54,785 nt of DNA from contig CAZKTW010000002.1 in assembly GCA_964555775.1 (NCBI GenBank), positions 1-54,785 on the forward strand, read 5' to 3'. This DNA is from an uncultured Bifidobacteriaceae bacterium (GTDB taxonomy: Bacteria; Verrucomicrobiota; Verrucomicrobiia; Limisphaerales; UBA11358). Below the pieces are notes generated by a model. That model did no database searches and was not told where the DNA came from. It saw nothing but the letters and a program-made list of their open reading frames with translations. A program made the translations under genes and the position numbers. Shown piece by piece: positions 4,171 to 50,309 of this stretch; position 1 is the first letter of the stretch, and each line of letters opens with the position of its first letter.

Positions 4171-6171
4171 ATGTTCACGGCCAGGCTTACTCGAAACCAG
4201 TTGCGAGGTGTTATCTGTCTCACGCTCGCCCTCGTGACGGCGGTGTTGTATTGGCCGCTGCTGCACCATGGCTTCGTCAGTCTTGATGATGAGGCGTACA
4301 TCACTGCAAATCCTCATGTCCAATCGGGATTGACCGGCCGGGGATTTGTGTGGGCATTTCAAATCGGTTACGCTGCCTATTGGCACCCGTTGACATGGAT
4401 TTCTCACATGCTGGATTGCCAGCTCTACGGCTTGAATCCCGCCGGCCACCACCTCACCAACCTGCTTTTTCACATCGTCAACGCCCTGTTGTTGTTTCTC
4501 TGGTTGAATCAACTCACGGGCGCTCTGTGGCGAAGTGCATTCGTGGCCGCCCTGTTCGCATGGCATCCTTTGCATGTGGAATCAGTGGCCTGGGCTTGTG
4601 AGCGCAAGGACGTGCTGAGCACCTTTTTTTGGATGCTCGCGCTCATCGCCTATACGCGGTTCGTGACAAGTGGCAAATGGCAGGTGACACGAAACGTCTC
4701 CTTCCTGTCACATGTCACGTGTCACAAGTCACCTCATTACTGGCTCGCGCTTTTTTTCTTCGCCTGTGGACTCATGTCCAAGCCCATGGTGGTGACTCTG
4801 CCATTTGTATTGCTGTTGCTGGATTACTGGCCTCTGCGAAGGGTGGCGAGTGACAAGTGGCGGGTGACGAGATTTGGCATTCCTGCCCCTCAACTTTCAG
4901 AACTCAACGCGCTGCTGCTGGAAAAGCTCCCGTTCTTCGCCCTGGCCCTGATGGGGAGTGTCGTGACGTATTTTGCCCAGAAAGGTGGCGGGGCCGTGTG
5001 GTCGGCGGGACTTCCGCTTCAAACCCGGCTGGCAAATGCTTTGGTGTCGTATTTACGTTACATCTCCAAAACTTTCTGGCCGGTGGACCTGGCCGTCGTT
5101 TACCCATATCCCCACCATTGGCCCGCCCCCCTGCTGATTGCCGCGGTACTGGTGCTGATATTCTGGACCGGACTGTTTCTTTGGCGGGCGCCGCGGAATC
5201 CATATTTGCTGGTCGGCTGGCTTTGGTTTATCGGGACGCTCGTTCCGGTCATCGGCCTGGTGCAGGTCGGCCCACAATCCATGGCGGACCGTTTCACCTA
5301 TGTCCCGGGCATTGGGTTGTTCATTCTTATTGCCTGGGGCCTGAACGAGTTTGTGACTTCTCATCCACCCTGGCGGCAGGCTGTTATCACAGTCGGAGGC
5401 GCGGCGCTGATCGGTTGCCTGGTTTGCACCCGGATTCAATCAAGCTATTGGCAGGACAGCATTACCCTGTTCCGACACGCCATCGCGGCTACGACGGACA
5501 ATTATATTGTCGATAATTTCCTGGGCCGCGCCCTGGAGGACGCCGGCAAGAATGACGAATCGTTGCCGCTCTACACGGAATCGGTGCGGCTGGAACCTAA
5601 CTATGCGGAGGCACAATTCAACCTGGGAATGGCGTGGCTCAATCGGGGCCGCCCGGAGGAAGCCACCAGGCATCTCGACACCGCGGTAAGACTTGTACCC
5701 GACAATGCCGGGGCACGATATTACCTCGGCACGGCATTGATTAACAGCGGAAGGTGGGATGACGCCATTGCACAATTCACCGAAGCCGTACACATCAACC
5801 CCGATTTTGCCGAAGCCCACACCCAACTGGCTCTTGCCCTGGTCAAACGAGGCAAGCTCGCGGAAGCCAACGTCCAGTTTGCGACGGTGGTCCGGTTGCA
5901 GCCCGACAATCCCGATGCCCATTTCAATCTTGGGCTCGCATTGCTGGAGAATCATCAACCCACCGAAGCCGCCGGGGAATTCGTCGCGGAGCTCCGTCTG
6001 ACGCCCAATGAAACCAAGGCCCATTACCGCCTGGCCCAGGCGCGGCAACAACAGAACCAGCCGGCCGACGCCGTCCAACATTACCGCGAGGCTTTGCGCC
6101 TGACGCCGAGATTTTCCGAGGCCAAAACGGAACTGGATGAAATCCTGGCCACCCATCCGGAGTTGCGTTAA
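4171..6171 (+). CDS. TMTC-like membrane protein with TPR repeats (tandem paralog)
   Basis: Collinear with 2194..4149 and shares the same motifs ('LDDEAYITANPHV', 'WHPLTWISHM', 'FAWHPLHVESVAW'). The C-terminus has clear 34-aa TPR units ('AEAQFNLGMAW', 'AEAHTQLALAL', 'PDAHFNLGLAL'). Confidence 0.8.
   Translation: MFTARLTRNQLRGVICLTLALVTAVLYWPLLHHGFVSLDDEAYITANPHVQSGLTGRGFVWAFQIGYAAYWHPLTWISHMLDCQLYGLNPAGHHLTNLLFHIVNALLLFLWLNQLTGALWRSAFVAALFAWHPLHVESVAWACERKDVLSTFFWMLALIAYTRFVTSGKWQVTRNVSFLSHVTCHKSPHYWLALFFFACGLMSKPMVVTLPFVLLLLDYWPLRRVASDKWRVTRFGIPAPQLSELNALLLEKLPFFALALMGSVVTYFAQKGGGAVWSAGLPLQTRLANALVSYLRYISKTFWPVDLAVVYPYPHHWPAPLLIAAVLVLIFWTGLFLWRAPRNPYLLVGWLWFIGTLVPVIGLVQVGPQSMADRFTYVPGIGLFILIAWGLNEFVTSHPPWRQAVITVGGAALIGCLVCTRIQSSYWQDSITLFRHAIAATTDNYIVDNFLGRALEDAGKNDESLPLYTESVRLEPNYAEAQFNLGMAWLNRGRPEEATRHLDTAVRLVPDNAGARYYLGTALINSGRWDDAIAQFTEAVHINPDFAEAHTQLALALVKRGKLAEANVQFATVVRLQPDNPDAHFNLGLALLENHQPTEAAGEFVAELRLTPNETKAHYRLAQARQQQNQPADAVQHYREALRLTPRFSEAKTELDEILATHPELR
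4663..4733 (+). repeat. In-CDS inverted pair of heptamer arrays (gtgRcaa x4 / tgtcacN x4)
   Basis: gtgacaa gtggcaa atggcag gtgacac (4663-90), then tgtcaca tgtcacg tgtcaca agtcacc (4706-33). Arm complementarity is about 19/27. Confidence 0.85.
4843..4870 (+). repeat. In-CDS heptamer array (gtgRcRR) x4
   Basis: gtggcga gtgacaa gtggcgg gtgacga, inside ORF 4171..6171. Confidence 0.85.
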
Positions 6172-6252
6172 ATCCGACAGAACTGGACAACCTCACCGAC
6201 CTTTTGTAAAGCTTCGTTGGTGCAGCCTGCGAACTGGCCTGCCGGAAATTTT

Positions 6253-7581
6253 ATGATACGAACTGCTACATGCCGGATCCTTCCAAAGGTGCTGGCCGGA
6301 ATTTTGTTGGTGGGCTGGGTCCACCGGGCCTCCGCTCTAAGTCCCGACATCTCGGACAGCGCCATCAGCAATGTCATCAACTCCGTTGCGAATCATTGGC
6401 AGCACCCACTCGCTGACGGGAGCTATCCGGTGGCAACCCACCTCCCGGAGGCCCAAGCGGCGGCAGAACCGGTCGGGATCAACTGGGAATATGCCTGGGG
6501 TGTGAATCTGGCCGGCCAGTTGCACGTGACCGACGCAACGGGCAACCAGACCTTTGAAAATTTTGTGCTGAATCACAACCTGATTTGCGCCCGCTATTTT
6601 GTCTGGCTGAAGGACCTGACCAACACCCTGGCCGACACGTCCGGACTCCGCAATTTTCAAAGAAAGAGCAACGTGCTGGGGACTTTTTTCATCCTCGACC
6701 GGCTGGATTATTGCGGTGCGATGGCCGCGCAGATGCTGGAAGGCGCGTTGCATCATGCCAAGGGTTTGTCGAGTGAAGAATTGCAAATGGCCAAAACCAC
6801 CGCCGACCACATCTGCAAGGTCCAATCCCGGCTGCCGGACGGCACGCTCTGGCGATCCACCGCGCAGGGCGGCACAATTTGGGGCGATGATCTTTACATG
6901 AGTTGTCCGTTTCTGGTTCGCTGGTATCAACATACCGGCGACACAAACTTGCTCAACGATGCCGCACAACAGGTGATCAACATGGCCGGCTATCTGCAGG
7001 ATACCAACGGCCTCTGGTTCCACGGCTATTACCAGCGCACGCATTCGGTCAACGGCATCAAGTGGGGCCGGGCCAACGGCTGGGAGATGATCGCCACGAC
7101 CGACGTCCTTTCCGTCCTGCCCGCCAATCATCCCGCCCGTTCAAAACTGCTGGACATCCTCCGCCGCCACATTGCCGGGGTGGAAACAGTGCAGGCGTCC
7201 GACGGCATGTGGCATCAGGTCCTCGATCATCCTGAAGTCTGGGAGGAAACCTCCTGCACCGCCATGTACGCTTACAGCATCGCCCGGGCGGTCAACCACG
7301 GCTGGATTGACGCCACCAACATGGCCGTGGCGCGCAAGGCCTTTGCCGCCATTGCGCAGATGGAGGTCAGCCCCACCGGGGTCGTCAGCAACATCTGTCC
7401 CGGCACCAGCCTCAACACCAACATCGCCTATTACACCAATAAAATCAGCCTGCCGCCGACCACCGACGACCGTCATGGCCCCGGCCTGGTGATGTTGGCC
7501 GGCGCCGAAATCCTCCTGGCGCAAAAGACGGGCGCAGTTCACGACGGAAACCCGACCACAGCTTCCCCGAACTTGAAATAA
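6253..7581 (+). CDS. Glycoside hydrolase family 105/88 (unsaturated rhamnogalacturonyl/glucuronyl hydrolase-like), secreted
   Basis: Signal-peptide-like 'MIRTATCRILPKVLAGILLVGWVHRASA'. 'GDDLYMSCPFLVRW', 'WGRANGWEMIA' and 'DGMWHQVLD...EETSCTAMYAYSIARAV' match the YteR/GH105 alpha6/alpha6 barrel. Confidence 0.7.
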   Translation: MIRTATCRILPKVLAGILLVGWVHRASALSPDISDSAISNVINSVANHWQHPLADGSYPVATHLPEAQAAAEPVGINWEYAWGVNLAGQLHVTDATGNQTFENFVLNHNLICARYFVWLKDLTNTLADTSGLRNFQRKSNVLGTFFILDRLDYCGAMAAQMLEGALHHAKGLSSEELQMAKTTADHICKVQSRLPDGTLWRSTAQGGTIWGDDLYMSCPFLVRWYQHTGDTNLLNDAAQQVINMAGYLQDTNGLWFHGYYQRTHSVNGIKWGRANGWEMIATTDVLSVLPANHPARSKLLDILRRHIAGVETVQASDGMWHQVLDHPEVWEETSCTAMYAYSIARAVNHGWIDATNMAVARKAFAAIAQMEVSPTGVVSNICPGTSLNTNIAYYTNKISLPPTTDDRHGPGLVMLAGAEILLAQKTGAVHDGNPTTASPNLK

Positions 7582-7635
7582 CCCTTTTTGTCTCCGGCTG
7601 GACATGCCAGCGGCCTTTTGCAAAACTCCGCGAGC

Positions 7636-8241
7636 GTGAAACAATCAATTGTCACCCTGGACATGGAAGGCGTGTTGACGCCGGAAATCTGGATCGCTGT
7701 GGCCGAGAAAACCGGGATCCCGGAATTGCGCCGCACCACGCGCGATGAACCGGACTATGACAAGCTGATGCGTGGACGCCTGGCCATTCTGGATCAACAT
7801 GGCTTGAAGTTGTCCGAAATCCAGAAAGTCATCGGCACGTTGAGTCCGCTGCCCGGCGGCCGGGAATTTCTGGATGAACTCCGTTCGCTGGTTCAGGTCG
7901 TCATCCTGTCCGACACGTTCGAACAATTCGCCGCTCCCCTGCTCCGCCTGCTCAACTGGCCGACGCTGCTCTGCCACCGGCTCGTGGTGGAGAACGATCG
8001 CATCGTGGATTACCAGTTGCGCCTCCGGGAGCAGAAGCGCGAAGCCGTGGCCGCCTTCAAGCGGATGAATTATCACGTCATCTCCGGCGGCGATTCGTTC
8101 AACGATATTGCCATGCTCTCCGAGGCGCACGATGGCATCCTTTTTCGCGCACCCGACAACGTGAAGCAGCAATTCCCGGAATTCCCCGCCGTCGAAACCT
8201 ACACGGATTTGATGAAACGGATCAAGGCGGCGATGGCCTAA
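7636..8241 (+). CDS. thrH: Phosphoserine phosphatase / homoserine phosphotransferase ThrH (HAD family)
   Basis: Near-collinear with my memory of Pseudomonas ThrH: 'LDMEGVLTPEIWIAVAEKTGI', 'TTRDEPDYDKLM', 'VVILSDTFEQFAAPL', 'PTLLCHRL', 'GDSFNDIAMLSEAH.GILFRAP'. The start is uncertain: GTG 7636 or TTG 7588. Confidence 0.75.
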   Translation: MKQSIVTLDMEGVLTPEIWIAVAEKTGIPELRRTTRDEPDYDKLMRGRLAILDQHGLKLSEIQKVIGTLSPLPGGREFLDELRSLVQVVILSDTFEQFAAPLLRLLNWPTLLCHRLVVENDRIVDYQLRLREQKREAVAAFKRMNYHVISGGDSFNDIAMLSEAHDGILFRAPDNVKQQFPEFPAVETYTDLMKRIKAAMA

Positions 8242-8282
8242 GCACGGTCGAACGTCGACAGTCGAGGGCCGAGGGCAAGTTG

Positions 8283-8310
8283 CGTAAATCGGCAATCGTA
8301 AATCGTAAAT
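8283..8310 (+). repeat. Heptamer array (cgtaaat-type) x4
   Basis: cgtaaat cggcaat cgtaaat cgtaaat, in the convergent gap between thrH and gpsA. Confidence 0.9.
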
Positions 8311-8314
8311 GCCC

Positions 8315-9292
8315 CTAGTCTTCCGCCTTGAACGTGCGGGAAATCAGATCGCGCACCGCCTGCTTCGGTTTTTTCCCCTCGTAAAGCAGTTTGTAAACCT
8401 CCTCAATGATCGGGGTGGCCACTTTATTTTGCTTTGCCAGACGGTGCGCGGAACGCGCGGTCGGATGGCCTTCCGCCAGTTTGGGGTGCGAAGCCTGGAT
8501 GTCCTTCATGGTTTCGCCACGGCCAAGCCTCTCGCCCAGGTCGCGATTGCGGCTCTGCTTCGAGAAGCACGTCAGCATGAGGTCGCCCAGGCCGCTCAAG
8601 CCCGCGAACGTCTCCGCCTGGGCGCCGCACGCCACGCCCAGCCGGCGCATCTCGGCCAGCGCCCGCGTGACCAGGCCTGCCTTGGTATTGTCACCATAAC
8701 CCAATCCGTCGCTCACGCCCGCGGCAATGGCAATGATGTTTTTCAACGCGCCGCCGTATTCCACCCCCAGCACATCCGTACTTCGATAGATGCGGAATTC
8801 CGGGCGATGCAAAAGTCCCTGCACGGTGCGCGCCGTGTCGTCGCTCTCGGAGGCGCAGACCACCGTGGTGGGAATACCCAGTGCGACTTCGCGGGCAAAG
8901 CTCGGGCCCGAGAGCGCCACCACGCGTTCCGCCGGAGCCTGTTCGCGCAAAATCCGGCTCATGGTGTCGCCGGTCTCAAACTCGATGCCCTTGGTCACAC
9001 TCACCATGATGGCTGGATGCCCCTTCAATTTGGCCGCCACCGACCGGAAGAATTGCGAAGGAATGGCCAGCACAAGGCCTTCGGCCCCGGCCACCGCTTT
9101 CTTAAAGTCCGCCACCGCCTTCCAGGCTGTCGGCAACTCCACGCCGGGCAGATAACGCTCGCTGCGGCCGTGGCGCAATTCCTCCAGGGTTTCGGCGTCA
9201 ATGTCCCAAAGCGTCACGGCATTGCCATTTTCATGCAACACCTTGGCCAGCGCCGTGCCCCACGCACCGGTGCCCAACACGGTGATTTTCAT
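8315..9292 (-). CDS. gpsA: NAD(P)H-dependent glycerol-3-phosphate dehydrogenase
   Basis: 'MKITVLGTGAWGTALA' Rossmann motif, 'LSGPSFAREV' and 'GLGDLMLTCFS..SRN' are GpsA signatures. It overlaps plsY by 4 nt. Confidence 0.95.
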   Translation of the reverse strand: MKITVLGTGAWGTALAKVLHENGNAVTLWDIDAETLEELRHGRSERYLPGVELPTAWKAVADFKKAVAGAEGLVLAIPSQFFRSVAAKLKGHPAIMVSVTKGIEFETGDTMSRILREQAPAERVVALSGPSFAREVALGIPTTVVCASESDDTARTVQGLLHRPEFRIYRSTDVLGVEYGGALKNIIAIAAGVSDGLGYGDNTKAGLVTRALAEMRRLGVACGAQAETFAGLSGLGDLMLTCFSKQSRNRDLGERLGRGETMKDIQASHPKLAEGHPTARSAHRLAKQNKVATPIIEEVYKLLYEGKKPKQAVRDLISRTFKAED

Positions 9293-9927
9293 TTCGTTGC
9301 CTCCTGGATTGCAGGCTTTTTGCCAATCCGACTTTCGGTTCCAGCCATAAGACGTTTGATGTTTGATTTATGTTTGTAAATTGCCATGGCTCCCAGCGCG
9401 GTGGTCACCAGGCCGAGGAACACGTTGTGGTCCGGCAGGCACCAGACCGCCGCCGCCAAGGCAATCGCCGCAGCGATGGAACCAATGGAAACATAACGCG
9501 TCAAACACAAGGCCAGAATAAAGGCCGCCAACGCGATGCCCACCGCCAGCGGTGCCAGCGCCAGATAAGCTCCCCCGCTGGTGGCGATGCCTTTGCCACC
9601 CTTGAATCTCAGCCAGCAGGTGAAATTGTGGCCGAGCACCACGGCAATGCCCGCAACAATTCGAAGCGTTTCAATATCCGCATCCGGGTTTGATATTTTC
9701 ATCAGCAAGGGGACAATCCACTCAACTGCGGCATAACCCTTGAGCGCGTCCACCAGCAATACGGTGATTCCCGCCGGCTTGCCCAGCACCCGCATGGCAT
9801 TGGTGGCGCCGATATTGCCGCTGCCCACGGTGCGAATATCAATGCCCTTTGCCCGGGCGGCAAGATAACCCGTGGGAATCGAGCCCAGCAAATACGCCGC
9901 CACGACGGTGATGATGTAAGCGAGCAC
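9289..9927 (-). CDS. plsY: Glycerol-3-phosphate acyltransferase PlsY
   Basis: 'LLGSIPTGY', 'GSGNIGATNAMR', 'HNFTCWLRFKGGKG' and a multi-TM profile. GTG start. Confidence 0.95.
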   Translation of the reverse strand: MLAYIITVVAAYLLGSIPTGYLAARAKGIDIRTVGSGNIGATNAMRVLGKPAGITVLLVDALKGYAAVEWIVPLLMKISNPDADIETLRIVAGIAVVLGHNFTCWLRFKGGKGIATSGGAYLALAPLAVGIALAAFILALCLTRYVSIGSIAAAIALAAAVWCLPDHNVFLGLVTTALGAMAIYKHKSNIKRLMAGTESRIGKKPAIQEATK

Positions 9928-9950
9928 GAACTGAGTTTATGGGGCCAGGG

Positions 9951-10001
9951 TCCAAAGTTCAAAGTCCAAAATTGGAGTTGGAGTTGGAGTTCAAGCTTTG
10001 G
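9951..10001 (+). repeat. Adjacent period-7 (tccaaag-type x3) and period-6 (ttggag-type x5) arrays
   Basis: tccaaag ttcaaag tccaaaa, then ttggag ttggag ttggag ttcaag ctttgg. Confidence 0.85.
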
Positions 10002-10089
10002 CTTGTCAGGCCTGCACGCTGAAGCGTGTACTCCAACGCGCTGCTGATTTCAGCTTTTAGAAAAGCACGCTTGCTGGCACACTGCCCGC

Positions 10090-11127
10090 ATGGCATCAAA
10101 GGTCAAAGTCGCCGTCCTCGGCACCGGCTCGCTGGGTCAGAATCATGTCCGCATTTACTCGGAACTCGCCGCCGCCGGCCAGGTGGAATTCACCGGCCTC
10201 TTTGACACCCACCCCGACACCGCCCGTAAAATCGCCACCAGGCACAATGCCCGCATTTTCAATTCCGTCGCCGAGGCCGTCACCGCCAGCGACGCGTTGA
10301 ACATCGTCACCCCCACCACCACGCATTTTGAACTTGCAAAAACATTGCTGGCGGCTGGCAAGCACGTCCTTGTCGAGAAGCCAATGACTGACGACACGGC
10401 CCAGGCCGCCGAACTTGTCCAACTGGCCAGGCGAATGAATTGTGTTTTGCAGGTCGGCCACGTCGAGCGGTTCAATCCCGTGTTCAAATATCTCGAATCA
10501 GTCGCCACCCAGCCGCGGTTCATCGAGTGCCACCGGCTCTCACCCTACCCCGCCCGCTCAACCGACATCGGCGTTGTGCTCGATTTGATGATCCATGACC
10601 TCGACGTCGTGCTCGCGTTCGTTAAATCACCGGTTGCCAGCATGGACGCCGTGGGGATTCCGGTTTTGAGCAAATCCGAGGACATCGCCAACGTGCGGCT
10701 GCGCTTCGCCAACGGCTGTGTCGCCAACCTCACCGCCAGCCGCATCAGCCCCGAACGGATGCGGAAAATACGCGTCTTCAGCGGCCCAACCAATCCCTGT
10801 TACATCTCGCTTCATTACGACGTGCAGGAAGGATTCATCTATCGCGTCGCCCGCGACGACGAACCGGAAAGTTCGTTGCTGAAAAAGGTTCTCGCCACCA
10901 AGCTCGGCCTCGGCAAAGACTCCGCCATCGTCAGCGAATTTGCCGGCAAGAAGATCGTGCGCGAGCCGGTGCCGATTGCGAAGGACGAACCGCTCAAGCT
11001 GGAGCTGCAACATTTCGTGAATTGTGTCCGCGAAAAACAGACGCCCATGGTCAGCGGCGAATCGGCCAAGCTGGCCCTGGACCTGGCCTTTGAAATCACC
11101 CGGCAGATTCAAAATCAAAAAACTTAA
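10090..11127 (+). CDS. Gfo/Idh/MocA-family NAD-dependent oxidoreductase (possibly GnnA-like)
   Basis: N-terminal Rossmann 'KVAVLGTGSLGQNH' and 'EKPMT' motif, followed by a C-terminal alpha/beta domain. Without the two inserted genes it would sit directly upstream of lpxB. Confidence 0.8.
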   Translation: MASKVKVAVLGTGSLGQNHVRIYSELAAAGQVEFTGLFDTHPDTARKIATRHNARIFNSVAEAVTASDALNIVTPTTTHFELAKTLLAAGKHVLVEKPMTDDTAQAAELVQLARRMNCVLQVGHVERFNPVFKYLESVATQPRFIECHRLSPYPARSTDIGVVLDLMIHDLDVVLAFVKSPVASMDAVGIPVLSKSEDIANVRLRFANGCVANLTASRISPERMRKIRVFSGPTNPCYISLHYDVQEGFIYRVARDDEPESSLLKKVLATKLGLGKDSAIVSEFAGKKIVREPVPIAKDEPLKLELQHFVNCVREKQTPMVSGESAKLALDLAFEITRQIQNQKT

Positions 11128-41079: not shown

Positions 41080-43794
<2,715 letters not shown>

Positions 43795-43914: not shown

Positions 43915-44048
43915 TACGTCGGTTTCAAGCATTTGCGGGACCAGACGCCGCACCCCGCCATCTGAGCAACACGGTCCGGGGACATATCCCGAGACATTCC
44001 ACGTTGCTTTGTCTCGACAGCCGGAGAAATTCACGGTAGCTTTTTTTT

Positions 44049-44140
44049 GCCAGGGCCCATGGAATGTGGACTTACGAACCCCGCCAGGGCCGGAAGGCAG
44101 CAACGGTAGTTTGCTCCGTATCTGCCGTGGTCACCCTGGC
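44049..44140 (+). ncRNA. ffs: Signal recognition particle RNA (small/4.5S type)
   Basis: Domain IV core 'CCGCCAGGGCC-GGAA-GGCAGCAACGG' (44081-44106) has a GGAA tetraloop and flanking AGG / AGCA loop residues. A 7-bp closing helix pairs GCCAGGG (44049-55) with CCCTGGC (44134-40). The whole folds as one long hairpin directly upstream of dnaX. Confidence 0.75.
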
Positions 44141-44147
44141 ATTCTGA

Positions 44148-44175
44148 ATTTACGATTTGCGATTTCGAATTCACG
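44148..44175 (-). repeat. Heptamer array (atttacg-type, the reverse complement of cgtaaat) x4
   Basis: atttacg atttgcg atttcga attcacg, followed by the perfect palindrome gattgcccgggcaatc (44175-90). Confidence 0.9.
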
Positions 44176-44200
44176 ATTGCCCGGGCAATCAACAACGACG

Positions 44201-44228
44201 CGTAAATCGTAAATCACAAATCAAAAAT
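44201..44228 (+). repeat. Heptamer array (cgtaaat-type) x4 running into the dnaX ATG
   Basis: cgtaaat cgtaaat cacaaat caaaaat. The last unit overlaps ATG 44227. Confidence 0.9.
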
Positions 44229-45978
44229 GTCATATCAGGTCATTGCCAGAAAATATCGTCCGCAGCGGTTTGCGGACGTGGTCGGCCAGGAACATGTCAC
44301 GCAGACGCTGGCCAATGCCATCGGGCAAAAGCGCATTGCCCACGCCTACCTGTTCTGCGGCCCGCGCGGCACCGGCAAGACGACCATCGCCCGCATCTTT
44401 GCCAAATGCCTTAATTGCACCGGCGGCCCCAAAATCGATTTTGACGACTCGGACCCGCGCTGCATTGAAATTGCCGAGGGCCGGTCGCTGGACGTGCTGG
44501 AAATTGACGGGGCCAGCAACAACGGCGTCGAACAGGTCCGTGAACTTCGCGAGACCTGCAAATACGCGCCCGCTCATTCACCGTTCAAGGTTTACATCAT
44601 CGACGAGGTGCACATGCTCTCGACGGCGGCGTTCAACGCGCTGCTGAAAACCCTGGAAGAGCCGCCGGCGCACGTGAAGTTCATGTTCGCCACGACCGAC
44701 CCGGAGAAGGTCCTGCCCACGATCCTGTCGCGTTGCCAGCGGTTCGATCTGCGCCGGATTCCCAGCGCGCTCATCGTCAAACACCTCGCCCAAATCGCAA
44801 AACTGGAGAAGGTCAAAATCGACGACCCGGCACTTCTGGCCATCGCCCGGGGCGCCGATGGCGGGATGCGCGACGCCGAATCCACGCTCGACCAGCTCAT
44901 CAGTTTCTGCGGCGAGAAGATTGAGGAGGCTGACGTGCTGTCCATGTTTGGCCTGGCCGCCCAAAGCCAGGTGCTCGGTTTGAGCCGGGCCGTGCTTGCC
45001 GGCGAAATCCAGACCGCGCTCGGTCTTCTGAACGAACTGGCGCAAAACGGCAAGGACCTCGGGCGGTTGCTTTCGGATCTGCTCAACCATTTTCGCAACC
45101 TGCTCATTTTCCAGGTTTCGCGCGGCGACCTGAACCTGCTCGAAGTGTCCGAAATCGAGGTCGCGGCGCTCAAGGAACAATCCCCGCTGACCAACACCGG
45201 ATCGCTGACCCGGATCCTGGAGGCACTCACCGATGCCGAGCTTCGCCTCCGCGACACCGCCTCAAAAAAAATCCTGGTTGAAGTCACCATGCTCAAGGCC
45301 ATCGAAGCCGGCAATGCAGTGAGCCTCGACTCGGTCTTGAAGCAACTTAACCAATTGCGCGGCGGCCAAAGCAGCGCCGGTATCGCCCCGGCGGAACGCC
45401 AGGCACCGGCCCGGCCAGCAATGGAAAAAACAAAAATCGTTCACCGGCTCGCCGAACCGGCGCCCGGCGTCGCAACCCCTTTAACTGAAACTCCACCCGT
45501 CTCCGGTGACTTGAGCGAGTTGTGGACCAGACTCATCGAGGCCGTCGGCCGCGTGAGCCAGTTCACCCGGACCTACCTGCTGGACGCGCATCCGGTTTCA
45601 TTTGCCCAGGGAATCCTGACCATCGGCTTCGACCCTGAATTTGAGGATCATCTCGGCCTGGTGGACAACGCGCGCAATCACACCCTGCTGCAAACCAAGC
45701 TGGCCGAACTGGGACACGCGAACACCCAGATCAAATTCATCAAGGCCGAGGCGCCGGTTGGAGCGACCGCCAAACCCGCGGCGCCCGCGGCGGCCCCGGC
45801 AACCAGTTCCCCGCCGGCGATTGCACCCGCTGCGGCTAAACCCGCCGCGGCGGCCACTGCATCCGGAAAGGAAAAAACCTCGCCGGTGGCTTTCAACAAG
45901 AACGATTTCAAGAACGACCCGTTGATTCAAAAGGCCCTGGAAATCTTCCGCGGCCAGATCATCGAAGTTCGCGCGTGA
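44227..45978 (+). CDS. dnaX: DNA polymerase III subunit gamma/tau
   Basis: 'MSYQVIARKYRPQRFADVVGQEHV', 'GPRGTGKTT', 'KVYIIDEVHMLS', 'FNALLKTLEEPP.HVKF' and 'SRCQRF'. Confidence 0.97.
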   Translation: MSYQVIARKYRPQRFADVVGQEHVTQTLANAIGQKRIAHAYLFCGPRGTGKTTIARIFAKCLNCTGGPKIDFDDSDPRCIEIAEGRSLDVLEIDGASNNGVEQVRELRETCKYAPAHSPFKVYIIDEVHMLSTAAFNALLKTLEEPPAHVKFMFATTDPEKVLPTILSRCQRFDLRRIPSALIVKHLAQIAKLEKVKIDDPALLAIARGADGGMRDAESTLDQLISFCGEKIEEADVLSMFGLAAQSQVLGLSRAVLAGEIQTALGLLNELAQNGKDLGRLLSDLLNHFRNLLIFQVSRGDLNLLEVSEIEVAALKEQSPLTNTGSLTRILEALTDAELRLRDTASKKILVEVTMLKAIEAGNAVSLDSVLKQLNQLRGGQSSAGIAPAERQAPARPAMEKTKIVHRLAEPAPGVATPLTETPPVSGDLSELWTRLIEAVGRVSQFTRTYLLDAHPVSFAQGILTIGFDPEFEDHLGLVDNARNHTLLQTKLAELGHANTQIKFIKAEAPVGATAKPAAPAAAPATSSPPAIAPAAAKPAAAATASGKEKTSPVAFNKNDFKNDPLIQKALEIFRGQIIEVRA

Positions 45979-46003
45979 GTTTTGGGCCACTCCATCAGCC
46001 AGA

Positions 46004-46029
46004 GGCAGGGCGCGTCACTCCGTGCTCGC
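46004..46029 (+). repeat. Left 26-nt inverted repeat bounding the dnaX/ybaB insertion
   Basis: ggcagggcgcgtcactccgtgctcgc matches the reverse complement of 49914-49939 at 24 of 26 positions. Confidence 0.8.
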
Positions 46030-46037
46030 CGTTTTGT

Positions 46038-46108
46038 GCAGGAGACGAGGTGACGAGACTCAAATTTCTTTTTTTTAAGCAAGACGGAGACTCCACGTCG
46101 TCTCCTAC
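46038..46108. repeat. Inverted pair of REP family A copies separated by a T-rich 24-nt spacer
   Basis: gcaggagacgaggtgacgagactc (46038-61) and ggagactccacgtcgtctcctac (46086-108), 60 nt after the dnaX stop. Confidence 0.8.
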
Positions 46109-46212
46109 TTTGTTAACGGCTGCTAGCCGGCTTGAGTTGCGCCGGATGCGGCTGCCCTCGACGACGCCCCGGCCCGTCGCTTTCAACGCGGGATCATTAT
46201 GCCCGGCTATCG

Positions 46213-47241
46213 TCACGGCTTCGGGCGCTTGAGTTTTTTTGGTTTCGGCAACTGTTGCAACTGTTTCGCGACCTGCTCAAAATCGGCATCCACTGGACGC
46301 GGCTGGGCATCGGCTAACGCTTGGTAACGCTCGTATTCCCTTTCCGCCTTGGCCCGGGCGGTTTCGGAGGAAATCTTCCCGGCGTGATGCAACAACTCGC
46401 GCCCGGATATTTTCAAGAATTCGTCCAGCTTTTCAATCCAGTTGCGCATCGTCATCGGCTTGCGGTCGAGGGCCTGAAGTTCGGCGAACTCGATGTAGAG
46501 GTTCACGATCCGGTTCAGCGTTTGCAGTTCCGCTTCGTTGAGATAGTTCTTGGCCACCGAAACATCCTCCCGGCGGATGATTCGACCGGGGCGTGTGGTC
46601 GCCAGCCCCATCAACGGCTGCGCCGCGTCGGCGCGCTGGTGGATGACCTCCGCCGCCGTGTGTCCATGCGTCGCCCAATGCATCTTGTTCTGCACCGTGG
46701 CGAAGAACTGTTGTGACGCCTCCTCGCGCGGATCGTAATCAACGCTCGTCGCGTAAATATCCAGCACCTTCTGGTAGAAACGCCGTTCCGAGGAGCGGAT
46801 GTCCCGGATGCGCTGCAACAACTCATCAAAATAATCCTTCTGCCCCTTGCCGGGCGGATTTTTTAATCGCTCGTCGTCCATTGTAAATCCCTTGACGATA
46901 TATTCGCGCAATCGCTGCGTGGCCCACTGGCGGAACTGCGTGCCCCGGTGCGATTTCACCCGGTAACCGACCGCAATGATGACATCGAGATTATAGTGCT
47001 GCGTGTCGTAGGTTTTACCATCGGCGGCAGTTATCCGGAATTTCCGGATAACTGAATCGGGCACCAGCTCACCTTCCTCAAAGATGTTTTGAATATGTTC
47101 GTTGACCGTGCGAACATCCTTCTGAAAAAGCTCGGCCATCAGCTTTTGTGTGAGCCAGACGGTTTCATTTTCGAGTCGGACTTCAATCCGCGTCCGGTTG
47201 TCCTCGGTCTGGTAAAGAATCAATTCTGACTTCGGTTTCAT
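46213..47241 (-). CDS. rhuM: RhuM-family protein (virulence/DNA-binding-like)
   Basis: 'ILYQTEDNRTRIEVRLENETVWLTQ..MAELF....TVNEHI.NIF.EGEL' and 'YNLDVIIAVGYRV.S..GTQFRQWAT..L.EY..KGF' match my recollection of the RhuM family. Confidence 0.7.
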   Translation of the reverse strand: MKPKSELILYQTEDNRTRIEVRLENETVWLTQKLMAELFQKDVRTVNEHIQNIFEEGELVPDSVIRKFRITAADGKTYDTQHYNLDVIIAVGYRVKSHRGTQFRQWATQRLREYIVKGFTMDDERLKNPPGKGQKDYFDELLQRIRDIRSSERRFYQKVLDIYATSVDYDPREEASQQFFATVQNKMHWATHGHTAAEVIHQRADAAQPLMGLATTRPGRIIRREDVSVAKNYLNEAELQTLNRIVNLYIEFAELQALDRKPMTMRNWIEKLDEFLKISGRELLHHAGKISSETARAKAEREYERYQALADAQPRPVDADFEQVAKQLQQLPKPKKLKRPKP

Positions 47242-47296
47242 GTGCTCAATTATACTTCACCCGGTGCGACAAAGGCTGTCCAAGCTTCATTGTGGT

Positions 47297-49573
47297 TTAC
47301 TGGTCGACATCGTCGAATACTGAACGTGAATCATCACCGCCTCCGCTGTGAGATCCGCCACGGTAATCATCAGAATCAGGTTCTTGCGGTTGCCCTCGCC
47401 TCAAGTCCTCCACAAGCTCTTCAATTTCTACCAATGCGGAATCAATTTTTGAAACGGCCTTTGAATCCTGCGCAAGTTCGCTTTTATAATCCTTCAGGGC
47501 ATCAACAAGCGATTCAAAGTGACTTTCGGGGTCTCTTTCGTTGTCCCAATTATGCTGCCAGTGAGAAATCTCGTCGTCTATATTTGGAATTAACTTCGTT
47601 CTCACGTCTTCCATGATTTGGGTGAATTCTTCCGGCTTAATCATTTTCCGAATGCCTTCAGTGAGAAACCCGGAATCTGGCGTCTCGACTGCCAATCCTC
47701 GAATGATAGAAACAACAGATGCTCTTGTGACTTCATGGAGAATACCAAATTCATGAAGTCTTACGAAGACATCAACGTCAGACACAGCAGTCAGATAAGA
47801 GCCGACACTTAATGACGAAATAAATTGAGTATTTCGCTCGATATAGCGCGACAGAAACTTTTGGTCGCACCGAAATGCAAGAAACGAGTGCAATGACCTT
47901 TGATTGTCTGACGTTGAAGTGTCAAATTTTTCAAGTCGGGTAATCAGCGTGTCGTAACGGTCTTGCGGAACAATAACTTTTACACCTTGAATGCCAACAT
48001 CGCCACATGAGACTTCCCCAAACAACTTTGCAATTGGAGTTCCAGCAAGATAGATGTCCAGCAATTCACGGTCTTCTGCCACTACTGTTGCAAAGGCATC
48101 TCGGATCGTCGGATGTTTGAAGCGCCACAAGTAAGCACCTGCTTGTAGTAACTGAAGAATGAGGCTGCCATCCAGTGCATTGAGCGCATTGCGCACATCT
48201 GAAAGCGAGCCGCCGAGTAGTGTAATCGCTCGCTCTTCGTCGGGAGACATTTTTACTGGGCTGGCGAGCGACCCACCGCGCATGAATACCAATGCCAAAG
48301 CAGAACGGCTTCCGGCATCGAGGGTCTGAATAATTTCACAAAGTAATTCAAGCGGACGCTCCACGAAATCATCTAAATCGTCTTTAGCGATTACCAAGTG
48401 CTTTGTGAATAATGGATTGCCAAGCCGCCTCGCTATTTCGGGGCTAAAGCGAGGATGGGCCGAGACATTTGGTAGATAAGATTTTATTTGGGTCTTGAAT
48501 CGCCTCGGCTGACCTCCTAGGCGGACATGATTGTAGAGAATCTGTTCGCGCTCTTCCTTCGTGAGTTGTTCAACATGAATCACGACTTGCGATTCACGAA
48601 TGACAGGAAGTGCCGATTCTTTCAAGTGCTGTTTCGCTGAACGATAGATATAGTCGCGTGAAGTGAAAAGCACTCTTGCACCACGACGAATGGCAGCATG
48701 TATATGTGGAAATGTTTGATTCCAACTTGCCACGCTTGACCAATCAAATTGAGTCGCTCCAAAAGCATCATTCACCCAAAAGAATTGCTTTGGCTCATGC
48801 GGGTTTGATCGCGCAACGAACTCACTTGCGTCACGGATTTTGAGTGTCGAGCATCTCCATTCATCCAATGCACCTACGGCTAAAGCAGCAGCGATTGTTG
48901 ATTTGCCACAGGCTGGCTCGCCCAAAAGCAGCACAAATCCATGTTCTACCAATGCCTTCGCACTACGCTGGTAGGCATCTGTAATGACAAATTTCGACAA
49001 ATCATCGCCGAGTGCGCTCAATATCTCGCGTGCTTGGTCATAACCCCGCTCATCCAGAATTTGACCAAGATCACCCAGGCCATAAACACGAGGAACTAAC
49101 ATTCGCAGTCGGGATGAGTCGCGAATGAAATGGGAAATCCGGTCACCACCATATGCTGCAAACTTTTTGATGCCGGCAATCTCAAGAAATGCATTCTGGA
49201 TGGTTTCCTCATTCGTTCCGGTAAGGCGCGCATTAGTGAAAAGAAAGTAGTTGTCGGAGAGACCACGAGCAGCGAGGCGCTTTGCTTTATCGAGTTCGTC
49301 AGTCAAGTCAGCAAGCTGTATTTGCTTGTCTGCTTTTGCTGTGAATTTGCATTGTGCTGTGAATGACCCCTCGAACACTTCACCTGATTTTGATTTCCAT
49401 GTTCCTTGAAATGCGCCGTCCCTTCCTCCATCGTGTGAATCAAAGAAACTCTGAACGGTCTGCCCCCACACTTCGCCCACAATTGTGACACACAGAGTTT
49501 GAAATGCTTTCCAGCCGAGTGTATGGAGTTCGCATGTAATCTCGGACGCCTGGACTTTGCTTGGGGCATTCAT
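47297..49573 (-). CDS. Mrr-like PD-(D/E)xK nuclease + P-loop NTPase + long helical C-terminal domain protein (candidate defence protein)
   Basis: 'HDGGRDG' (nt 49435-49415) and 'AQCK' (49357-49346) give the Mrr_cat-type core. Walker A is 'GEPACGKST' (48922-48896) and Walker B-like is 'FFWVNDAF' (48784-48761). G+C is low. The start is ATG 49573; the ORF is open to 49633. Confidence 0.65.
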   Translation of the reverse strand: MNAPSKVQASEITCELHTLGWKAFQTLCVTIVGEVWGQTVQSFFDSHDGGRDGAFQGTWKSKSGEVFEGSFTAQCKFTAKADKQIQLADLTDELDKAKRLAARGLSDNYFLFTNARLTGTNEETIQNAFLEIAGIKKFAAYGGDRISHFIRDSSRLRMLVPRVYGLGDLGQILDERGYDQAREILSALGDDLSKFVITDAYQRSAKALVEHGFVLLLGEPACGKSTIAAALAVGALDEWRCSTLKIRDASEFVARSNPHEPKQFFWVNDAFGATQFDWSSVASWNQTFPHIHAAIRRGARVLFTSRDYIYRSAKQHLKESALPVIRESQVVIHVEQLTKEEREQILYNHVRLGGQPRRFKTQIKSYLPNVSAHPRFSPEIARRLGNPLFTKHLVIAKDDLDDFVERPLELLCEIIQTLDAGSRSALALVFMRGGSLASPVKMSPDEERAITLLGGSLSDVRNALNALDGSLILQLLQAGAYLWRFKHPTIRDAFATVVAEDRELLDIYLAGTPIAKLFGEVSCGDVGIQGVKVIVPQDRYDTLITRLEKFDTSTSDNQRSLHSFLAFRCDQKFLSRYIERNTQFISSLSVGSYLTAVSDVDVFVRLHEFGILHEVTRASVVSIIRGLAVETPDSGFLTEGIRKMIKPEEFTQIMEDVRTKLIPNIDDEISHWQHNWDNERDPESHFESLVDALKDYKSELAQDSKAVSKIDSALVEIEELVEDLRRGQPQEPDSDDYRGGSHSGGGDDSRSVFDDVDQ

Positions 49574-49629
49574 CACGGAAGAAGACTTCTTAAGTCGAGC
49601 CGCGGGCTCGACGCTACAATCCCCGTCTC

Positions 49630-49749
49630 CCAAGCATGGCGCGCCTCATCTTCCTGGCAAGCAGGGGAAAGATGAAATTTCTCGTCGGTCCAAAAATCCG
49701 CCACAAGCTGTTTCACCCGCCCAAAGGTTGCCTCGAAGGTCGTCAACAT
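49630..49749 (-). pseudogene. Remnant resembling the N-terminus of a type I/IIG restriction-modification enzyme (HsdR_N-like leader)
   Basis: 'MLTTFEATFGRVKQLVADFWTDEKFHLSPACQEDEARHAW' resembles the '..LV..F......Y.S..Y.E.E.R.(D/E)FI' N-termini of Eco57I-like/type I enzymes. The similarity ends at about 49630, next to a perfect palindrome (49594-49612). Confidence 0.35.
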
Positions 49750-49835
49750 GAGTTTGGAGTGTGCGCCGGAGCGGCGGCGGCGGCAATAAATTAGTTGCTG
49801 GTTGATGAGGGCCGGGAAAAGCAGCAATTGAAAAT

Positions 49836-49872
49836 TTGCGCCTTTGCATATCCGCGTCTTTGCGTTAAAAAC
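49836..49872 (+). repeat. Family E repeat near the right edge of the dnaX/ybaB insertion
   Basis: ttgcgcctttgcatatccgcgtctttgcgttaaaaac. Confidence 0.6.
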
Positions 49873-49913
49873 ATTTTTGCGTTTTCCGTGCGTTTTTCAA
49901 TCGGTTCTGAGCG

Positions 49914-49939
49914 GCGCGCACGGAGTGACGCGCCCTACC
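49914..49939 (-). repeat. Right 26-nt inverted repeat bounding the dnaX/ybaB insertion
   Basis: gcgcgcacggagtgacgcgccctacc. Confidence 0.8.
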
Positions 49940-49997
49940 ATCAAACAATTTGGCAATATCGGATTGGAATTTTTACATGCTCATGTAATCTGCCGGC

Positions 49998-50309
49998 ATG
50001 TCGAGCATTGGAAAACTGATGAAACAGGCTGCGCGAATGCAGCAACAAATGGAACAGGTGCAAACCCAACTGGCGGCGCGCACCGTGGAGGCCACCAGCG
50101 GCGGCGGCGCGGTCAAGGTCATTGCCAAATGCGATGGCAGCATCGCCTCCATCAAGATTGATCCCCAGGCGCTCAATCCCGCCGATGCGCAGTTGCTGGA
50201 GGACATGATTGTGACCGCCGCAAATCAGGCTCTCGGCCAGGCCAAGGACATTTCCAATACGGAAATGGGGAAAATCACCTCCGGATTGAGCCTGCCGGGG
50301 ATGGGATGA
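49998..50309 (+). CDS. ybaB: YbaB/EbfC-family nucleoid-associated protein
   Basis: 'LMKQAARMQQQMEQVQ..L....VEATSGGGAVKV...DG.I.SIKIDP', 103 aa. Confidence 0.95.
   Translation: MSSIGKLMKQAARMQQQMEQVQTQLAARTVEATSGGGAVKVIAKCDGSIASIKIDPQALNPADAQLLEDMIVTAANQALGQAKDISNTEMGKITSGLSLPGMG

Follow-up and report, generated by a model that had tools for sequence, protein, structure and literature searches.

The window analyzed here, a 54,785-nucleotide stretch (positions 1 to 54,785, forward strand) of contig CAZKTW010000002.1 from an uncultured bacterium placed in the Verrucomicrobiota by GTDB, carries between its dnaX and ybaB genes a minus-strand open reading frame (ORF) that a preliminary description, made from the letters alone, had singled out as a candidate defense gene. 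We find that its product joins an Mrr-type nuclease domain, an NTPase domain of the nSTAND3 family, and a short helical C-terminal domain, and that it belongs to the family described by the PADLOC candidate PDC-S73. The protein is probably a single-protein, Avs-like antiviral STAND nuclease in which the NTPase domain would act as switch and the C-terminal domain as sensor, and its gene appears to have been acquired horizontally as a cassette; the mode of action that we propose is drawn by analogy with Avs2, Avs3, and Avs4 and with Avs5. The preliminary description had already suggested this logic of effector nuclease, NTPase switch, and C-terminal sensor, together with a role in genetic conflict, and the Pfam, Foldseek, and neighborhood results given below support it.

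The ORF listing of the window gives this frame as 778 amino acids (aa) with a TTG start (47297-49633). An in-frame ATG at 49573 yields a complete coding sequence (CDS) of 758 aa, and because the N-termini of homologs start only a few residues from this ATG, with conservation beginning at K6-V7-Q8, the 758-aa numbering is used throughout (Table 1). The residues D68, K96, and K244 that had been named earlier as targets for mutation follow the 778-aa numbering and correspond to D48, K76, and K224 here. All four motifs on which that description was built (HDGGRDG, QCK, GEPACGKST, and FFWVNDAF) were recovered letter for letter and in place, and its remark on low G+C was likewise borne out: the composition of the gene is foreign to its host, with a G+C content of 47.3% and a G+C content at third codon positions (GC3) of 43%, compared to 58 to 61% and 70 to 75%, respectively, in dnaX, ybaB, and recR.

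The NTPase domain was assigned by Pfam, in which nSTAND3 (PF20720) matched with 138 bits (cut-off, 27.2; E = 2.8e-40) over model positions 1 to 154 of 155. Conservation was read from several alignments, including one of 105 full-length relatives that are 30 to 58% identical (A2) and one of 59 sequences (A4). In Walker A, A4 shows no variation at G218, G223, or K224, and A2 shows conservation of at least 90%; W266, D268, and D269 of Walker B are invariant or at least 90% conserved across the 105 relatives. T304 is invariant in the 105 sequences, and R306 is invariant in A4 and present in 104 of 105 members of A2; these residues form, with S305, the counterpart of the TT/SR sensor motif described for EfAvs5, ZAR1, and Apaf-1 (EfAvs5 paper). 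Beyond the nucleotide-binding domain (NBD), the preliminary description had seen a helical region of about 400 aa without any motif. This region instead resolves into a helical domain (HD) and a winged-helix domain (WHD), the latter with an invariant His487-Pro488, followed by a variable helical domain of about 230 aa. The His-Pro pair (48110-48115, in FKHPTIRDA) is invariant in the 105 sequences, and the AlphaFold2 model places a beta-hairpin at residues 472 to 485 directly before a helix that runs through residue 499. By comparison with NB-ARC proteins, we take H487-P488 to be the MHD equivalent of the winged-helix domain.

The nuclease domain was placed through relatives. When searched alone, the N-terminal domain of the window protein gave no match to Mrr_cat (PF04471) even at E ≤ 10, and neither the N-terminal nor the C-terminal part of the protein, taken separately, had a Pfam match. 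Of 51 diverse N-terminal domains of the family, however, 49 matched Mrr_cat at E ≤ 1, and 31 still did so at E ≤ 1e-3 (best, 1.4e-8); no other family was matched at that level by any of the 51. By transitivity through these relatives, the window domain is probably a member as well. Residues D48, G50, D52, Q74, and K76 are invariant in alignment A3, and the full-length AlphaFold2 model shows an alpha-beta-beta-beta-alpha-beta core at residues 21 to 113 (helix 21-34, strands 53-60 and 66-76, helix 87-102, strand 108-113) with predicted local distance difference test (pLDDT) scores above 90. The PD-(D/E)xK layout of Mrr_cat type first read from the letters is thus upheld, with D48, D52, Q74, and K76 invariant or nearly so. 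A PADLOC model for the restriction endonuclease (REase) of short-Argonaute (pAgo-associated) systems was also matched by 31 of 59 family members. Between the nuclease and the NBD lies a linker (RLRxLVPRxYGLGDLSxILDERAY, with R157 invariant) that is the most conserved stretch of the whole protein and carries no Pfam annotation; by analogy with the EfAvs5 paper, it may represent a FISNA-like pre-NBD element.

The preliminary description had proposed that the structure be predicted with AlphaFold and compared by Foldseek, and this analysis returned Avs4, EfAvs5, and SAMD9 as the closest neighbors. AlphaFold2 modeled the NTPase region poorly when first run on 35 close homologs (mean pLDDT, 72.8), while a diverse alignment of 105 sequences gave a model with a pLDDT of 93.3 and a predicted TM-score of 0.85. 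This model contains the nuclease core, a P-loop domain, a helical domain, a winged-helix domain, and an all-helical C-terminal domain. In the PDB, its top matches were Avs4 (8dgf_B, E = 9.7e-8), EfAvs5 (9jap_A, 1.8e-7), and human SAMD9 (9zjw_A, 1.7e-5), followed by NAIP5, a second Avs5 filament, NOD2, and Apaf-1. All matches to STAND and NLR proteins had E ≤ 1e-3 and a probability of 1.0; global TM-scores were low (0.17 to 0.26), as is expected for multidomain proteins in different conformations. Searches of the PDB by protein sequence or family profile yielded only noise from P-loops and matches due to helical-bundle composition; no close relative has therefore been solved. NCBIfam gave no match for the protein.

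The C-terminal domain is the least conserved folded part of the protein in the conservation profile and ends in a three-helix bundle with a pLDDT of about 95. It had no Pfam match, no sequence match in the PDB, and no TPR match. Relative to the nearest full-length relative, located in locus L134, the ratio of nonsynonymous to synonymous substitution rates (dN/dS) was 0.10 overall, 0.04 in the nuclease, and 0.17 in the C-terminal domain, the highest of the folded domains. Such a gradient is what a sensor might show, and we count it in favor of the antiviral reading. In the terminal tail, dN/dS was 0, with no nonsynonymous change between the two copies. This tail (SRSVFDDVDQ; family pattern SRS[IV]FDDVD; residues 748 to 758, at 47300-47332) follows a variable acidic and glycine-rich linker, and its F753 and D755 are invariant across sequences that are 30 to 58% identical. 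Because AlphaFold2 places the tail confidently (pLDDT, 91) and the linker not (54 to 58), the model suggests that the tail docks back on the body of the protein. A bolder reading of the short sensor and its tail is that these compact REase-nSTAND3 proteins form an unnamed Avs family, unlike the protein-pattern receptors Avs1 to Avs24, in which a conserved sensor and a docked acidic tail would pick up a conserved signal, for example interference with restriction-modification (RM), another perturbation of host processes, or DNA itself, in place of variable phage structural proteins, with the tail as an autoinhibitory latch; we regard this as a speculative and rather unlikely extension.

The same features bear on whether the protein might be an NTP-gated, type IV-like restriction enzyme, which would sense modified or foreign DNA through its WHD or C-terminal domain and cut it without killing the host. 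In the modification-dependent enzyme Mrr, catalysis is carried out by Mrr_cat; an RM gene directly adjoins the homolog in 4 of the 13 neighborhoods described below, the C-terminal domain is short and not TPR-like, and the high conservation of the family would suit a fixed ligand, for instance DNA. The NTPase, however, is a STAND switch by its TSR motif, its WHD with an MHD-like histidine, and a fold near those of Avs4, Avs5, and NLRs, and is neither a translocase nor a McrB-type GTPase; moreover, Pfam searches found no DNA-reading domain such as SRA or the winged-helix Mrr_N. Taken together, we consider a type IV-like enzyme unlikely.

The family is large and widely spread. At E ≤ 1e-3, matches were found in more than 3,200 clusters of 90% identity, and a library clustered at 50% identity contained 477 representatives at E ≤ 1e-30. 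The top 120 matches are all about 760 aa long and 63 to 87% identical, and their hosts are Verrucomicrobiota, Planctomycetota, Acidobacteriota, and members of several classes of proteobacteria. Plasmid records with a homolog numbered 67, of which 35 were conjugative; phage genomes yielded essentially none. The profile searches in Pfam and PADLOC that had been proposed at the outset returned nSTAND3 and PDC-S73, respectively. The PDC-S73 model (PDLC05079) aligns to residues 17 to 728 at model positions 7 to 722 of 752 (E = 1.3e-26), and was matched by 59 of 59 diverse members (best, 5.2e-46), whereas the PADLOC AVAST models were matched by none of the 59 at E ≤ 1e-3. The window protein and PDC-S73 thus match over their full length. 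For an alignment of some 750 aa these scores are modest, and the model probably derives from a sister branch. A literature search found no paper that names or tests PDC-S73, which is a computational candidate. An Enterobacterales member of the family (WP_129639787.1) is seed #409 in the STAND defense census of Lee et al. 2026, whose accessible text defines 589 STAND clades, names Avs7 to Avs24, and attaches no Avs number to the family; nSTAND3 does not occur in the main text of Kaur et al. 2020. The family is thus already catalogued as a candidate, to which the window gene adds another member, and the earlier statement that the protein could not be placed in any named system gives way to a full-length PDC-S73 match, the NTPase family of Avs5, and a census seed.

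Among characterized systems, nSTAND3 is the NTPase family of Avs5, and EfAvs5 and PaAvs5 share with the window protein the PF20720 domain, the tripartite NBD-HD-WHD layout, the TT/SR motif, and a similar size. The effector differs: Avs5 carries a SIR2 NADase, while the window protein has an Mrr-type nuclease and no SIR2 match, and no Avs5 chain in the PDB was matched by the family profile at E ≤ 1, nor was an AVAST model. EfAvs5 is activated by filamentation and requires its Walker motifs (EfAvs5 paper). With Avs2, Avs3, and Avs4, the window protein shares a logic in which a DNA endonuclease at the N-terminus and a sensor at the C-terminus flank a STAND switch. Phage activates Avs3 and Avs4 as non-specific DNases, the N-terminal domain of KpAvs2 is of Mrr type, and Avs4 is the best structural match. 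Avs2, Avs3, and Avs4 are, however, about twice as long, have TPR-like sensors of at least 400 aa and an NTPase from another clade, and gave no match at the sequence level. The protein had been described as about half the usual Avs length, which is correct with respect to Avs1 to Avs4 and incorrect for Avs5, the solved chains of which span 767 to 833 aa. SAMD9, the third-best structural match, clusters with Avs5 in published analyses; the effector of SAMD9 and Avs9 is an AlbA_2 tRNase and that of Avs6 a PNP, and SAMD9/9L and these two Avs proteins are much larger and multidomain.

Relatives of variant length (P0268, P0236, P0228, and others) were surveyed for effector swapping, and the idea was set aside, as the variant N-termini either had no Pfam match or resembled fusions produced by gene calling. 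Within this set, P0268 (744 aa) aligns to residues 198 to 758 and begins with about 190 unrelated aa that contain a D...QVK-like pattern and have no Pfam match; this N-terminus may be an effector swap.

By analogy with the Avs proteins, we infer a mechanism in which the protein would be held in the uninfected cell as a closed, nucleotide-bound monomer with its acidic C-terminal tail docked on the body. A cue produced by infection would bind the C-terminal domain, after which the NBD and WHD would open and the protein would oligomerize in an ATP-dependent manner. The Mrr domains brought together in this way would cut DNA non-specifically, and the infection would be aborted. The analysis itself shows the architecture, the conserved motifs, the structural neighbors, and the defense-island context; what triggers the protein, how it would oligomerize, that it would cleave DNA, and what its tail would do are proposals. 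If confirmed, the family would add a widespread Mrr-nuclease branch, with at least 477 clusters at 50% identity, to the Avs5/SAMD9-like receptors of bacterial NLR type. Its small size (about 760 aa) and short, conserved sensor would further make it a tractable minimal STAND receptor for asking how the off-state is maintained, possibly through the docked tail, and what cue is sensed.

The neighborhoods of homologs were surveyed at 13 loci, and a known defense system lies within 10 kb in 8 of them. Two homologs lie inside or adjoin type I RM operons, and the L134 copy directly follows a type IIG RM gene. Others neighbor a Lamassu-like set of Cap4 nuclease and SMC-like genes together with Hachiman, AbiEi/AbiEii on a conjugative plasmid, SIR2 with an ATPase, Wadjet with BrxR, or a DISARM-like set with an OLD nuclease. 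Toxin-antitoxin, TIR, or Fic genes adjoin the homolog at three loci, and one context is unremarkable. Defense-island contexts thus make up most of the sampled loci. As a separate observation, genes with Fic domains adjoin or lie near the homolog in 4 of the 13 contexts (L003, L011, L131, and L133).

These neighborhoods also speak to two further explanations. The protein could be a guard of RM similar to PrrC/EcoprrI, silent beside an intact RM enzyme and fired when a phage anti-restriction factor attacks it. The gene is found repeatedly within or abutting RM operons, the window itself holds an RM remnant, and both the sensor and the predicted docked acidic tail are conserved. Nine of the 13 contexts nevertheless have no adjoining RM gene, and where one is present its type differs (type I or type IIG); RM is the commonest content of defense islands, such that adjacency is expected by chance, and the reading is backed by neither co-variation nor a conserved gene pair. 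A guard of this kind is, in our estimation, very unlikely. The protein could also be a STAND protein outside immunity, for example, a regulator or housekeeping switch with a nuclease-like domain, given that 391 of 589 STAND clades are not defense associated in Lee et al. 2026 and that two homolog contexts look housekeeping-like. Set against this are the invariant catalytic residues of the nuclease, a patchy spread across phyla with atypical GC, homologs carried on plasmids, the predominance of defense-island contexts, and the match to a PADLOC candidate model, which leave a non-immune role hardly credible.

The copy in the window departs from its family at one position of the switch. Its Walker B reads FFWVNDAF, where the family motif is FFWVDDAF: Asp occupies position 268 in 138 of 138 other aligned members (34 of 34 in alignment A1 and 104 of 104 in A2), and the second acidic residue, D269, is retained. 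What had been called Walker B-like is thus correctly located and corresponds to the true Walker B of the family, with Asn in place of an otherwise invariant Asp. Because relatives more than 92% identical carry D268 and N268 occurs only in sequence-identical copies from other assemblies, N268 is, as judged from these sequences, a real and derived allele. The Walker B Asp coordinates Mg2+ in P-loop proteins. Mutants in the Walker motifs abolish defense by EfAvs5 (EfAvs5 paper), and by analogy we infer that D268N weakens or alters the switch, with an attenuated or altered protein as the predicted outcome.

It is a tentative possibility, which we judge less likely than not, that the window copy is a decaying or attenuated relic of a defense nuclease family, with a switch disabled or damped by D268N and little or no immunity conferred at present. 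N268 is unique among 139 aligned members and is not shared by relatives of more than 92% identity; the adjoining type IIG RM gene has been reduced to about 38 codons, and EfAvs5 loses defense in Walker motif mutants. On the other hand, the ORF is otherwise intact, with 8 departures from consensus compared to 11 in the median homolog in A1 and 1 compared to 2 in A2; dN/dS against the nearest relative is 0.10; the allele is present in several independent assemblies; and Asn is still able to ligate Mg2+, while EfAvs5 works without ATP hydrolysis (EfAvs5 paper). As a secondary reading, the allele could be a naturally selected variant with an attenuated or altered switch.

Several points weigh against the interpretation of the window protein as an Avs-like antiviral nuclease. 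D268N may render this copy non-functional. The C-terminal domain, at about 230 aa, is short beside canonical Avs sensors of at least 400 aa, and no sequence test finds it TPR-like; conservation of 63 to 87% across at least four phyla is atypical of sensors that race phage proteins. The link to Avs proteins, as modeled, is one of fold and architecture only, with no solved protein reached by sequence profile and no PADLOC AVAST model matched. The neighborhood sample of 13 loci is descriptive and has no statistical control, and some of its contexts are unremarkable. Finally, no experimental test of phage defense was found in the literature for any member of the family.

Table 1. Features of the nuclease-STAND gene and of the insertion that carries it; positions are those of the window, and residues follow the 758-aa numbering
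Feature	Positions	Strand	Basis or remark
Insertion between dnaX (44227-45978) and ybaB (49998-50309)	45979-49997		4,019 nt; gap comparison
28-nt inverted REP-like repeats	46004-46031 and 49912-49939		Bracket the insertion; 93% complementary
RhuM-family gene (PADLOC candidate PDC-S05)	46213-47241	-	Pfam E = 2.9e-115; 55 nt downstream of the nuclease-STAND gene
Complete CDS: Mrr-REase, nSTAND3 NTPase, HD-WHD, helical C-domain, conserved tail	47297-49573	-	758 aa plus stop; Pfam, PADLOC, AlphaFold2
Variable acidic/Gly linker (residues 729-747) and conserved tail (748-758)	47300-47389	-	Alignments, AlphaFold2
All-helical C-terminal domain, putative sensor (residues 501-728)	47390-48073	-	Conservation, AlphaFold2
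STAND helical domain and winged-helix domain (residues 336-500)	48074-48568	-	Conservation, AlphaFold2
nSTAND3 nucleotide-binding domain (residues 195-351)	48521-48991	-	Pfam PF20720
TSR sensor motif	48656-48664	-	Within VLFTSRD, residues 301-307
Walker B FFWVNDAF (residues 264-271)	48784-48761	-	Motif
Asn268, first acidic position of Walker B	48770-48772	-	Codon AAT
Walker A GEPACGKST (residues 218-226)	48922-48896	-	Motif
Pre-NBD linker (residues 146-194)	48992-49138	-	Conservation profile
Mrr_cat-type PD-(D/E)xK nuclease domain (residues 15-145)	49139-49531	-	PF04471 matches of relatives, conserved residues, AlphaFold2
QCK (residues 74-76; Q74-x-K76)	49354-49346	-	Catalytic motif
HDGGRDG (residues 47-53)	49435-49415	-	Catalytic D48/D52 at 49418-49432
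Type IIG (MmeI/Eco57I-type) RM gene remnant, first ~38 codons	49639-49752	-	BLASTP E = 6e-13

The gene resides in an insertion at the dnaX-ybaB junction. Empty sites were taken from RecR relatives (loci L136-L213): in 53 of 55 related metagenomic loci with RecR 82 to 89% identical, the gap between dnaX and ybaB is 34 to 54 nt, compared to 4,019 nt in the window. A search for an empty site by way of an identical YbaB protein found only the same island in another sample. The empty site in related genomes, together with a GC3 of 43% against 70 to 75%, points to a horizontal origin of the gene. Because two relatives hold different small insertions at this junction (671 nt in L194 and 940 nt in L195), it may be a recurrent point of insertion.

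Directly upstream of the gene, the RM remnant that had been noticed in the preliminary description proved to be the N-terminus of a type IIG enzyme, 61% identical to residues 25 to 62 of a 1,050-aa RM protein in L134; a tblastn search against plasmids and a PADLOC scan gave no match for it. In L134, the intact RM gene (4811-7963) precedes a homolog 92% identical to the window protein. The two loci are 90% identical at the nucleotide level over window positions 47235-49593 and L134 positions 7980-10339, which comprise only the gene, 20 nt upstream, and 62 nt downstream. On the downstream side, homology ends a little way into the next gene, which is RhuM here and an unrelated 154-aa ORF in L134, a pattern that looks like cassette exchange. 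The gene would thus have arrived by horizontal transfer as a cassette beside a type IIG restriction gene of which nearly all has since been deleted. The window offers a well-resolved case of defense-cassette turnover, in which a low-GC gene occupies a junction of normally about 40 nt, its partner RM gene is deleted, and its Walker B is changed.

The neighboring gene was indeed RhuM, as first described, and a functional link between the two was not supported: the adjacency is present in this strain only and in 0 of the 12 other contexts. Because RhuM adjoins it only here, the nuclease-STAND gene is, as far as gene order tells, a single-gene unit. The GC3 of RhuM (70%) is host-like and that of its neighbor is not, which suggests separate origins of the two genes. 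No terminator-like site was found between them, and a scan for consensus promoters and terminators was uninformative.

The REP-like repeats that bracket the insertion were considered as possible termini of a mobile element that carried the island, and this was set aside as unproven: their 19-mer core is dispersed in more than 118 Verrucomicrobiota loci, often as close +/- hairpin pairs. This spread identifies the phylum of the host. The inverted repeat is missing from the related empty dnaX-ybaB sites. The same island was present in a second sample (L130), for which all 89 differences from the window fall in three patches (42988-43096, 44164-44274, and 45708-45912). All three patches lie upstream of the island; one falls within the Ala/Pro-rich stretch of dnaX, and the two sequences are identical from 45913 on. 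Just upstream of dnaX, at 44048-44144 on the plus strand, the window also encodes a bacterial small signal recognition particle RNA (Rfam RF00169, 71.7 bits), in ordinary synteny.

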